64,000 nt of DNA from an archaeon (GTDB lineage Archaea > AGJL01 > Methanococci > Methanococcales > Methanocaldococcaceae). Under the pieces are notes generated by a model that saw only the letters and a program-made list of their open reading frames with translations, did not search any database and had not been told where the DNA came from. Position numbers and translations under genes: made by a program. Where the stretch lies: NCBI GenBank assembly GCA_024278985.1, contig JAJRSC010000030.1:1-64000 (forward strand), in the 5' to 3' direction. This document shows, piece by piece, positions 9,248 to 19,498 of the stretch. Positions within the stretch are counted from its first letter, which is position 1. Every line of letters begins with the position of its first letter.

Positions 9248-9946
9248 ATGAAAAATTGGATAGATATTAATAGATTAGAGAAGGAAGAAGATATAAAACT
9301 ATTCAAATCATTACATTGGAAAGGATTTGTTTATTGTCAATATGATGAAGAATTTAGCAAAGAAAAATATAGTAACATTAAAAATATTGGAGAAAGTTTA
9401 GGCTTAAAAGTGTATAGTGGAGTGAAGATTAGAGCTGATAACATAAAAAAATTAAGAAAAAAAGTTAAAAAATTTAGGAATAAATGTCATATTATCCTTA
9501 TTGAAGGTGGAGATTTAAAAATAAATAGGGCAAGTGTTGAAATGCATGATGTAGATATTCTTTCAACTCCAGAGTTAAATAGAATTGACAGTGGATTAGA
9601 CCATGTTTTAACAAGATTGGCGAGTGAGCATAGAGTTGCTATAGAACTAAATTTTAATTATCTTTTAAATAAAGATGGCTATGAGAGAGCAAGGCAGTTA
9701 ATATTTTTTAGAAGAAATTTAATGTTGGCTAAAAAATATAAAACTCCTGTTGTTATAGGTAGTTATTCAACAAATAAATACAATATTAAAAGTCCATATG
9801 ATTTAAGAGCTTTTTTAAATACTTTGGTAGAAAAGGAATATGCAAAGGAAATTATGAATACTCTTTATAAAATTTGTGAATATAGGGAATATTTAATGAA
9901 TAAAAATGTTGTTAAGTATGGTGTTGAAATTATTGAATCTAAATAA
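9248..9946 (+). CDS. rnp3: RNase P protein component 3 (Rpp30)
   Basis: GGDLKINRA, VDILS, GLDHVL, VAIELNF. Confidence 0.9.
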   Translation: MKNWIDINRLEKEEDIKLFKSLHWKGFVYCQYDEEFSKEKYSNIKNIGESLGLKVYSGVKIRADNIKKLRKKVKKFRNKCHIILIEGGDLKINRASVEMHDVDILSTPELNRIDSGLDHVLTRLASEHRVAIELNFNYLLNKDGYERARQLIFFRRNLMLAKKYKTPVVIGSYSTNKYNIKSPYDLRAFLNTLVEKEYAKEIMNTLYKICEYREYLMNKNVVKYGVEIIESK

Positions 9947-10014
9947 ATAGATTAAAAAGGTATTTATATTAATTTTTCAGTTTTAATTTTAGGACTTTAA
10001 AAGTCCTTTATAGT

Positions 10015-10133
10015 TATTGTCCTGAGCTTAACAGCTCGGGACTGGTTTATGACTTAAATGGAGCTTAGTTATCCCTAACCTCCTGGGGATAGCTAAGTGA
10101 TGAAATTTAAGGAAACCAATAGGAGAGACAATA
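10015..10133 (+). ncRNA. Structured K-turn RNA (rps6e leader or stand-alone sRNA)
   Basis: Hairpin 10019-10042; nested stems tggttt/aaacca, cttaaat/atttaag, cttagttatccc/gggatagctaag with GGA and GAT-GAA K-turn. Confidence 0.7.
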
Positions 10134-10162
10134 TAATAAAAAAAACTATTTTAGGTGAGATT

Positions 10163-10549
10163 ATGCCAACTGCAAAATTTGTAGTAGCAGACCCTAAAAC
10201 AGGAAGATGCTACCAAATAGAAGCAGATAACACTCCATTAGTAGGGAAAAAAATAGGAGATGAATTTGATGGAGGAATTTTAGGATTATCAGGATATAAA
10301 TTAGTTATAACTGGAGGAACAGATGACAGTGGATTTCCAATGAGACCAGATATTCACGGTCCAAGAAAAGTAAGAGTTTTATTAAGTTCTCCACCAGGAT
10401 TCCATCCAAGAAGAAAAGGAGAAAGAAGAAGAAAAACAGTAAGAGGAAATACTATATCCTCTGATATAGTTCAAATAAACTGTAAAGTAGTAAAATATGG
10501 AGAAAAATCTATTCCTGAATTGTTAGGGTTAGAGGAGAAAAAAGAATAA
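10163..10549 (+). CDS. rps6e: 30S ribosomal protein S6e
   Basis: [25 protein letters not shown]; start MPTAKF after AGGTGA. Confidence 0.95.
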
Positions 10550-18668: not shown

Positions 18669-19472
18669 ATGTATATATTTAAAATAGCATATGATGGGAG
18701 ATACTCTTTTCAGCAGCAACCACATAAAGAAACTGTTTGTGATAAAATTTTAGAAGTTTTTTCTGATATATTAAAAGAAAGGAAGATTATTTATAGTGGT
18801 GGAAGGACTGATAAAGGAGTATCTGCCTTAGGGAATTTTGTAGTTCTAAATTTAAAAGAGGAGCCTAATATAAGATATCTAAATTATAAATTAAAAGATT
18901 ATGGAATATGGATTTTAGGTTTTAAAGAGATTGAAAACATTCCAGAGGTAAAATATAGACACTACAGGTATATCCTACCAAATATAAATTACAATGTAGA
19001 AAATATTAGATTAGCAGCTAAGAAGTTTATAGGTAAAAAGAGTTTTCATAATTTTTCAAAAAAAGATAGAACTAAAAATAAAAGCCCTATAAGAGAAATA
19101 TACAGTATTGATATTAAAGAAAATAGTTTCTTTTTGACAATTGATATTATTGGAAAAAGTTTTTTATGGCAAATGGTTAGGAAAATTGTAGGTGCTTTAC
19201 ATTTAGTTGGTAAGGAAATTAAAGAAGTTGAATGGATAGATAAATTATTTAAAACTAATTATAAAGAAGGAGCTCCAACTATGCCAGCAGAGGGGTTAAT
19301 ATTGGTTGAAGCAAAAACAGATATTCAATATAATTATGATAAATACATAATTAATAAATTTAAACATCACTGGGAAAAAGAGTTTTACTATAAAGTTATG
19401 AAAGTTGGAATTAGTAAAACAGTTTTAGAGTTGTGCCCCGGGGGAGCAGAGGAAACTCATCGCGCCGGATAG
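18669..19472 (+). CDS. truA: tRNA pseudouridine(38-40) synthase
   Basis: KIAYDG, GRTDKGVSA, FLWQMVR; tail encoded over an antisense sRNA. Confidence 0.93.
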   Translation: MYIFKIAYDGRYSFQQQPHKETVCDKILEVFSDILKERKIIYSGGRTDKGVSALGNFVVLNLKEEPNIRYLNYKLKDYGIWILGFKEIENIPEVKYRHYRYILPNINYNVENIRLAAKKFIGKKSFHNFSKKDRTKNKSPIREIYSIDIKENSFFLTIDIIGKSFLWQMVRKIVGALHLVGKEIKEVEWIDKLFKTNYKEGAPTMPAEGLILVEAKTDIQYNYDKYIINKFKHHWEKEFYYKVMKVGISKTVLELCPGGAEETHRAG

Positions 19473-19498
19473 CTCGTTCCCCTCGGTTACCCGGGGCA
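19429..19498 (-). ncRNA. Single-hairpin box H/ACA guide RNA
   Basis: gccccggg-taaccg-aggggaac-GA-gc...gc-gat-GA-gtttcctc-tgctcc-cccggggc-ACA: 8-bp basal stem, pocket, K-turn, ACA 14 nt after upper stem. Confidence 0.88.

Follow-up and report, generated by a model that had tools for sequence, protein, structure and literature searches.

What kind of RNA lies directly in front of rps6e, the gene of ribosomal protein S6e, in the 64,000-nucleotide stretch of Methanocaldococcus DNA analysed here (contig JAJRSC010000030.1 of assembly GCA_024278985.1; the whole stretch is called the window), and does it serve that gene as a leader or work as a small RNA (sRNA) of its own? The question was raised by an original prediction, made on the letters of the window, of a structured RNA containing a kink-turn (K-turn) that could be matched to no named family and was taken either for an L7Ae-sensing leader of S6e or for an atypical H/ACA-like sRNA. 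The analysis leaves practically no doubt that the RNA is genuine, that it is structured and conserved and that it carries two K-turn motifs; it is encoded at about positions 10011-10134 of the window (+), some 120 bases located 5' of rps6e.

Conservation and fold of the RNA

Homologues were sought in the genera of the order, g1 to g5, where g1 is the window's own genus, Methanocaldococcus, g3 is presumably Methanotorris and G000 denotes the window's own genome. BLAST of the element against 41 relatives returned a single true match, in G008 (E = 1.9e-28, 79% identity over 144 nt), the rest being A-rich noise; retrieval anchored on rps6e, together with a covariance model, was therefore used. The gene was located in 39 of the 41 genomes, and in the DNA taken from upstream of it the element was seen throughout the window's own genus. 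Eighteen copies served to build a covariance model; run over all 40 genomes of the order, it scored exactly one strong match (59-134 bits) in each of the 17 g1 genomes and in each of the two g3 genomes. No convincing copy was detected in the other 21 genomes of the order (13 of g2, 7 of g4 and 1 of g5), all other matches staying at or below 20 bits, and the window's own genome holds no second copy. Likewise, no convincing upstream match was found at 31 rps6e loci of other archaea, where the two best matches (16.5 and 15.8 bits) lay downstream of rps6e and a further one, of 9.7 bits (E = 0.76), lay upstream, in L129. The S6e protein itself is 92% identical to that of the nearest relative, Methanocaldococcus indicus.

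The + strand folds with a minimum free energy (MFE) of -54.8 kcal/mol (z = -6.4), which none of 200 shuffles equalled, while the minus strand folds less well (-41.5, z = -4.5) and the G-U pairs of the stems are compatible with the + strand only. The G+C content of the element, 35-43%, stands above the ~20-30% of the surrounding genome (60-nt windows). Three hairpin units make up the MFE fold (9991-10007, 10019-10042 and a long arm, 10043-10118), and they correspond to the inverted repeat, the hairpin and the nested arm of the original prediction, which are found where it had placed them, as are its TATA-like box, its ACA and its tattgtc/gacaata complementarity. The upper stem that it had put at about 12 bp is also present, its length being 15 bp in the MFE fold. 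A sigma-70 promoter and terminator scan, not applicable to archaea, merely re-found the two hairpins.

Whether the pairing is conserved in relatives, a check that had been proposed with the prediction, was evaluated in an alignment of the 19 copies, made with the covariance model and representing only about eight lineages. In this model-based alignment, standard pairs occupy 93.8% of the cells and compensatory changes on both sides are seen at 20 of the 30 pairs, a level of covariation that was reached by 0 of 500 shuffles; as a control, sliding the 3' partners by one column lowered pairing to ~55% or less. The hairpin at 10019-10042, named P2, comprises 11 pairs, 5 of them changed on both sides, with 98.6% of its cells paired. 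P2 and the single strand 5' of it are kept in sequence beyond what pairing needs, and a U.G adjoins a G.U within P2 in 15 of the 19 sequences.

As the prediction had held, this RNA falls under no named family: Rfam gave nothing relevant at its gathering thresholds or at E <= 10, with nothing above noise over 9900-10250 (four rows at E <= 10, all far below cut-offs), and Rfam 15 contains no model for the element. Identity with HgcC (RF00062) was considered and rejected, since HgcC maps elsewhere in G009, has no match in G000 and shows by eye a fold without the double K-turn. The element is not a new RNA, because its transcript is already on record in M. jannaschii; no fold, family, K-turn or function for it was found in the literature searched, which did not cover the Li 2007 thesis, Klein 2002, Schattner 2002 and the supplements of PMC2602779.

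Two K-turns on a common helix

K-turns bound by L7Ae organise ribosomes, box C/D and H/ACA ribonucleoproteins (RNPs) and RNase P. The canonical K-turn that had been recognised in the long arm, with its GAT bulge and three G.A pairs, is confirmed (Kt2: loop GAU 10099-10101, then G10102.A10062, A10103.G10061 and A10104.G10060). What had been read as a plain lower stem, tggttt/aaacca, does pair, yet it is the canonical (C) helix of a second K-turn (Kt1: helix UGGUU/AACCA, 10043-47/10114-18; loop UAU, 10048-50; G10051.A10113 and A10052.G10112). Kt1 and Kt2 are disposed head-to-head on opposite strands, their non-canonical (NC) sides facing each other and one NC helix being common to both. Counting the G.A pairs, the two loops are separated by 11 stacked pairs in 16 of the 19 sequences and by 12 in the window (G000), G008 and G013.

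At each of the two sites the sequence features of L7Ae-type K-turns are found, namely a 3-nt loop, tandem G.A/A.G pairs and flanking C and NC helices, and both are predicted from this signature to adopt the sheared K-turn geometry. The bulged strands follow the same pattern in every copy (Table 1), position 3b of Kt2 being A in 18 of the 19. Departures from the non-bulged GA are confined to G010 (AA) and G013 (irregular) for Kt1, and to G002 (UAA) and G013 (CAA by eye) for Kt2. Covariation extends to the helices around the motifs: the canonical helix of Kt1 (C1) is paired in 98.2% of the cells with a double change at 1 of 3 pairs, the NC helix in 96.5% with 5 of 6 modelled pairs changed on both sides, and the canonical helix of Kt2 (C2) has double changes at 9 of 10 pairs below an apical loop that is C-rich in all 19 sequences.

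Because the motifs are identical with proven L7Ae sites and L7Ae-family genes occur in this genome (two of them), we predict with good confidence that the element binds L7Ae, probably in two copies. In the available text of PMC5539422, a GAU-GA K-turn in the 5' untranslated region (UTR) of S. acidocaldarius l7ae is experimentally bound by L7Ae. For the NC helix of the window, composed almost entirely of A-U pairs, an open state is predicted at 65-80 °C, a range in which P2, C1 and C2 stay paired in the prediction; this suggests that the NC helix needs protein to fold at growth temperature, and according to the abstract of PMC6298567, protein-dependent folding is a property to be expected of a regulatory K-turn.

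Some species deviate at position 2n, which is A in place of G (A.A for A.G) at both K-turns in G013, at Kt2 only in G002 and at Kt1 only in G010; the parallel change at both G013 sites hints at a possible co-variation with the binding protein of that species. As a separate observation, two segments of the window's own genome lying upstream of its two L7Ae-family genes (L143, 1405-1478; L144, 1459-1500) each carry a short G+C-rich hairpin with a CUCC loop, followed ~10-15 nt later by AAUGA(A/G)(A)GGAGG, which includes the Shine-Dalgarno (SD) sequence to which the CCCUCC of the hairpin is complementary. These hairpins possibly represent a shared leader design, perhaps autoregulatory sites of L7Ae/L30e. 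A genome-wide regular expression for double K-turns was abandoned as too loose (174 matches against 74-96 in shuffles), though it did recover the element.

Contacts beyond the arm are less firmly indicated. In the window, AGGAG of the 3' tail (10121-10125) is complementary to CUCCU of the apical loop region (10080-10084), and contiguous tail-loop complementarity of 3-6 bp is available in all 19 sequences (CCCUUU/AAAGGG in G008, CUCCC/GGGAG in G028 and G019, ACCC/GGGU in the G009 group), its pairing energy being matched by per-sequence shuffles in 0.6-37% of trials. A tail-loop pseudoknot is put forward as a hypothesis only, since the loop is generically C-rich, the tail is generically G-rich and a cross-lineage permutation with 9 representatives gave p = 0.13. 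A possible short closing helix (YUAU/AUAG) between 10014-10018 and AAUAG at 10118-10122 shows, by eye, A.A or A.G mismatches in G001, G008, G014, G028 and G019 and one compensatory case in G003, so that this pairing has no support from covariation. If the tail is paired instead with UUGUCCU, on the 5' side of P2, compensatory and mismatching cases are likewise mixed (by eye), and this pairing is not established either. The competing stem with gacaata proposed earlier is not conserved, being available in the window and G008 only (2 of 19).

Table 1. Coordinates of the mapped features around the element and rps6e (positions in the window)
Feature	Position	Strand	Basis or remark
RNase P p30 gene	9248-9946		PF01876
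TFB-recognition element (BRE)/TATA-like candidate promoter AAAGGTATTTATATTAA	9956-9972	+	Sequence; pattern match at 9956-9968
Window-specific 7-bp hairpin AGGACUU/AAGUCCU	9991-10007	+	MFE fold; outside family core
5' single strand YUAUU (UUAUU here)	10014-10018	+	Nearly invariant in alignment
Hairpin P2, TAAC loop	10019-10042	+	10 bp; lower stem GUCCUGA/UYGGGAC kept in sequence, upper stem covaries
Kt1 C helix, 5' strand UGGUU	10043-10047	+	Pairs with 10114-10118
Kt1 bulged strand: loop UAU + G(1b)A(2b)	10048-10052	+	NAU-GA in 19/19
Shared NC helix, 5' strand CUUAAAU	10053-10059	+	Pairs with 10105-10111
Kt2 non-bulged strand G(3n)G(2n)A(1n)	10060-10062	+	NGA in 17/19
Kt2 C helix and apical loop	10063-10098	+	15-bp stem 10063-10077/10084-10098; loop ACCUCC 10078-10083
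Kt2 bulged strand: loop GAU + G(1b)A(2b)A(3b)	10099-10104	+	NAU-GA in 19/19
Shared NC helix, 3' strand AUUUAAG	10105-10111	+	Covariation
Kt1 non-bulged strand G(2n)A(1n)	10112-10113	+	GA in 17/19
Kt1 C helix, 3' strand AACCA	10114-10118	+	MFE fold, covariation
G-rich 3' tail AUAGGAGAGACAAUAU	10119-10134	+	AGGAG 10121-10125; ACA 10128-10130
CUAUUUU tract, candidate archaeal oligo-U termination or pause signal	10146-10152	+	Putative function
AGGUGA, presumably the SD-like sequence of rps6e	10153-10158	+	
rps6e, ribosomal protein S6e	10163-10549	+	PF01092, E = 6.2e-47

Leader of rps6e or separate RNA

The element stands upstream of rps6e, on the same strand, in all 19 genomes, while its upstream neighbour is not conserved, the RNase P p30 gene (Rpp30) being found there at 1 of 19 loci, that of G000; a connection in cis is argued from this strict linkage in the face of changing neighbours. 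The distance from the end of the model to the start codon is 12 nt in G002, 29-30 nt in G008, G000 and G013, 84-152 nt in 14 genomes and 390 nt in G019. In the four genomes with 12-30 nt, representing four lineages, the element must be a leader of rps6e, because no room is left for a second promoter. In addition, the available text of a 5'-RACE (rapid amplification of cDNA ends) study in M. jannaschii (Zhang, Li & Olsen 2009, PMC2699501) reports 1202056 as the sole transcription start site (TSS) of MJ1260, which encodes S6e, and its supplement gives a 227-nt UTR, a promoter score of 13.38 and primers located inside the gene; the same source equates the region with an experimentally found, unnamed non-coding RNA (ncRNA). 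The model match in G009 begins precisely at 1202056, and directly ahead of it the promoter and TSS strings of that publication can be read letter for letter. The published start thus coincides with the first base of the element, so that transcripts reaching rps6e start there.

Linkage, short spacers and this TSS together place the element inside the 5'UTR of rps6e, as the leader branch of the original prediction had proposed. On balance, we regard it as a structured segment with which the rps6e transcript of Methanocaldococcus and Methanotorris begins, its most likely role being that of a cis-acting leader; that it acts in cis on rps6e is held more tentatively, at or a little short of an even judgement.

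The spacer that separates element and gene contains four or more consecutive T in 18 of the 19 genomes and CU(A/G)UUUU in 16 (by eye), this U-tract lying 11-39 nt after the model end in 13 long-spacer g1 genomes. Partial termination at the U-tract could consequently yield a discrete sRNA. The G019 locus (L090, ~1630-2020) contains ~300 extra nt between the element and the U-tract/rps6e; the insert has G+C-rich hairpins such as CCACUGCAACCUUCGGUUGCAGGG and may be a second structured RNA or a mobile element.

In the relatives, a strong conserved promoter is located ~22 nt upstream of the first base of the element. The window has two TATA-like stretches, of which the one in use can only be presumed; AAAGGTATTTATATTAA would place the start of transcription near 9993, ahead of the window-specific hairpin. 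This hairpin, found in 0 of 18 homologues, would be the extreme 5' end of the transcript if the 9956-9972 match starts it. An archaeal promoter pattern scan was uninformative in this AT-rich DNA (414 matches against 348 expected). In genera g2, g4 and g5, where no convincing copy of the element was found, the rps6e loci (L053-L071) share a strong promoter-like AAAAGTATAAAAATAAT upstream of the gene, followed by a conserved leader start, AGAYGGG..AAUUURGRAAA, and AT-rich leaders of 100-200 nt. A similar promoter precedes the element in the two g3 genomes, which suggests that the element may have arisen inside an ancestral long rps6e leader.

In the window, the element lies between the RNase P p30 gene and rps6e, and an Hsp20 gene follows rps6e on the opposite strand. 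A GTG at 10097 in the list of open reading frames (ORFs) adds 22 residues to S6e by crossing the 3' half of the RNA (10097-10162). This extension is an ORF-caller artefact, since the homologues start at the ATG at 10163, and the element explains such spurious N-terminal extensions of S6e.

Several points weigh against the leader reading and the L7Ae-dependent action proposed for it below. The pair counts derive from an alignment fitted to the model's own structure and are biased towards that structure. In most species the element is 84-390 nt away from the start codon, and the long-spacer species have a TATA-like stretch after the U-tract that may be a separate rps6e promoter; if so, the element would be an sRNA gene in its own right in those species. 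Among public runs, no RNA run was listed with the sequence, and four DNA rows each contained a 0.07 share of the sampled words. Moreover, the K-turns indicate L7Ae, yet no functional tie of L7Ae to S6e accompanies them; the spacing of 11-12 bp is larger than in the crystallised horseshoe (10 bp); and the tail-loop contact is not significant across lineages.

The explanation that survives best beside the leader, though a rather unlikely one, is a stand-alone, stable small RNP (sRNP) acting in trans, derived from box C/D RNAs without keeping a guide function, transcribed from a strong promoter of its own and ending at the U-tract, so that rps6e would merely lie downstream and use read-through. 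Its task could be, for example, in ribosome biogenesis or as an L7Ae buffer. The experimentally identified ncRNA of M. jannaschii and the high promoter score, both from the available text of PMC2699501, agree with it, as does the finding of the same laboratory's screen, in the available text of PMC2602779, that presumed ncRNA promoters are among the strongest binders of TBP/TFB. The conserved U-tract of the 13 g1 genomes with long spacers, together with the TATA-like stretch in the AT-rich DNA after it, the sequence conservation of P2 and of the 5' strand in excess of pairing needs, and the topologically kept box order C, D', C', D point the same way. The covariance model also weakly picks up C/D-like sRNAs, its matches of 17-20 bits (L092-L095, in G030, G038, G024 and G025) resembling box C/D sRNAs. 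One of these, L094, reads GAUGA...GAUGAA..CUGAUGA, which underlines a C/D-like ancestry of the element. On the contrary, a separate gene is hard to reconcile with the 12-30 nt left before the start codon in G002, G000, G008 and G013, with the sole reported MJ1260 TSS, obtained with gene-internal primers, at the first base of the element, and with linkage to rps6e in every genome despite changing upstream neighbours. Furthermore, no conserved single-stranded antisense segment was found, complementarity to rRNA being limited to chance matches of 7-9 nt.

Autoregulation of ribosomal proteins is known in Methanococcales, and the element might be read as an S6e autoregulatory site, an rRNA mimic like those in the leaders of L1 and other ribosomal proteins, in which the K-turns would be architectural only. 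The exclusive linkage to rps6e and the sequence-conserved P2, whose U.G next to G.U could be a protein site, would fit, and long 5'UTRs upstream of rps6e are recorded for Pyrococcus abyssi as well in the available text of PMC3849170. Nonetheless, blastn-short against the genome's own 16S and partial 23S rRNA, a comparison of primary sequence only, gave words of 7-9 nt (E >= 1.1), no convincing copy stands upstream of rps6e in the 21 other genomes of the order or at the 31 distant loci, and its most conserved motifs are textbook L7Ae-type K-turns in place of an S6e site. We consider this explanation quite improbable.

Guide functions can be dismissed with near certainty. The other branch of the original prediction, an atypical H/ACA-like pseudouridylation guide, drew on a K-turn within a hairpin arm and on the window's ACA 16 nt after the arm, and the genome does use RNAs of this class: the sole above-gathering Rfam match in the 64-kb window is the H/ACA sRNA Pab160, at 19432-19497 (-) (52 bits against 47.4). 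The element itself is matched by no archaeal H/ACA family at E <= 10, the only row of H/ACA type being a nematode snoRNA model on the opposite strand (17.4 bits against an 80-bit cut-off); the ACA occurs in 2 of 19 copies (G000 and G008), others reading GGGUGAAA, GGGGGAUA and the like; and the two K-turns are the sole internal loops of the covarying fold, leaving no pocket. An H/ACA guide is refuted for the family as a whole by this lack of conservation of both ACA and pocket. A functional box C/D methylation guide is equally remote: its consensus boxes are RUGAUGA (C) and CUGA (D), and the bulged strands do resemble box C (AUGA conserved on both, AUGAUGA in many homologues) in the order C, D', C', D, but NGA or GA stands at positions D and D', with no CUGA in the rows compared, no Rfam C/D family matches, and guide function is excluded because the spacers, reduced to only 6-7 nt, are paired to one another with covariation (5 of 6 modelled pairs).

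Proposed action and comparison with known systems

L7Ae represses its own mRNA through a K-turn in the leader, and for the rps6e leader we infer an L7Ae-sensing regulatory mechanism, with its stoichiometry, three-dimensional shape and regulation, as follows. On binding, two copies of L7Ae would fix the arm in a folded-back form resembling a horseshoe, bringing the C2 apical loop back towards the junction and the 3' tail, and a stable RNP would result at the 5' end of every rps6e message. The leader would in this manner couple S6e output in cis to free L7Ae, and hence to the demand of ribosome and sRNP assembly, acting via read-through or processing at the conserved downstream U-tract. The discrete small RNA on record for M. 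jannaschii would then arise by termination or processing at this tract. In species with short spacers, such as this one, ribosome access could also be affected. As a general mechanism, blockage of the ribosome site is excluded by the length of most spacers; shielding of the 5' end is a further candidate action.

In its most specific form, this mechanism would be that of a horseshoe RNP attenuator, in which two L7Ae clamp the head-to-head K-turns, the C-rich loop is set onto the G-rich tail, and the fold decides between a stop at CUNUUUU and continuation into rps6e. We hold this detailed version to be unlikely as it stands, and the arms may be rotated, since the spacing of 11-12 bp is not the 10 bp of the horseshoe. 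If it were correct, it would represent a new class of archaeal ribosomal-protein attenuator, where L7Ae gauges assembly demand and sets S6e synthesis. More broadly, L7Ae-linked control would be extended to a second ribosomal-protein gene. The RNA is in any case an unannotated family and a candidate for Rfam, compact, represented by 19 sequences, offering clear mutational targets and belonging to a genus with a long biochemical tradition.

Compared with box C/D sRNAs, the element shares L7Ae-type K-turns, a box-C-like RUGA and two motifs in the order C, D', C', D. It differs from them in having paired spacers of 6-7 nt where those RNAs have single-stranded guides of ~12 nt, in lacking CUGA at D and D', in replacing the short D'-C' loop by a 30-40-nt helix, and in the added conserved 5' hairpin and 3' tail. 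The P. abyssi RNAs sRkB/sRkC (Phok et al. 2011, PMC3124441) resemble it as a 5'-UTR ncRNA with two K-turns that takes up more than one L7Ae, according to electrophoretic mobility shift assays (EMSA) and footprinting, whereas their K-turns belong to two different stems (P1 and P4), the RNA measures 216 nt and is linked to another gene, and no likeness of sequence or model is apparent.

The RNase P RNA of the same organisms offers two adjacent L7Ae sites in P12 and a long helix that folds back, the NC helix of KT2 being the 3-bp C helix of KT3 in a head-to-tail overlap (Lai et al. 2017, PMC5499556). The element is neither RNase P RNA nor a double K-turn of this P12 type, which was rejected because its own K-turns are head-to-head, with NC sides facing across 6-7 Watson-Crick pairs. 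The authors of that work call for a search of other RNAs with fold-back modules (PMC5499556).

As for leaders of ribosomal-protein mRNAs, the l7ae leader (Daume et al. 2017, PMC5539422; Huang et al. 2019, PMC6298567) is, from the available text of both papers, alike in its GAU loop, its tandem G.A pairs and its location, and also in L7Ae as the effector, which is shown there and proposed for the element. It has a single K-turn by the SD sequence of L7Ae's own gene, where repression was demonstrated by EMSA and reporters (available text of PMC5539422), whereas the element has two K-turns in a large conserved fold, precedes a different gene, rps6e, and is often far from the SD sequence. The closest counterpart is the leader/ncRNA of MJ1260, an orthologous RNA in the same position before rps6e, for which the available text of PMC2699501 notes that a stable structure is predicted and that an ncRNA is expressed ('data not shown'), giving no fold, K-turns, family or function. 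With respect to it, the window's copy has a spacer of 30 in place of 105 nt after the model end, the extra 5' hairpin and a lineage-specific ACA.

No natural head-to-head double K-turn sharing a helix was described in the literature searched. The architecture is found in the engineered two-k-turn unit of Kt-7, in which two K-turns are head-to-head with loops on opposite strands 10 bp apart and which crystallises as a horseshoe (Huang & Lilley 2016; PDB 4CS1 as cited there; available text of PMC5058347). Element and unit are alike in their common NC helix, the C helices forming the termini of the horseshoe in the crystal. That construct is a synthetic molecule, symmetric as well as self-complementary, whose loops stand 10 bp apart (available text of PMC5058347). 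The element, on the contrary, spaces its loops by 11 bp in 16 of the 19 sequences and by 12 bp in the remaining 3. Its K-turns are not identical (at 3b.3n, one has A.G and the other for the most part C-G or U.U), and its arms are unequal, a loop capping one of them while the second runs into the junction. If the proposed fold is true, it would provide a natural case of the architecture known from this engineered crystal construct (available text of PMC5058347).

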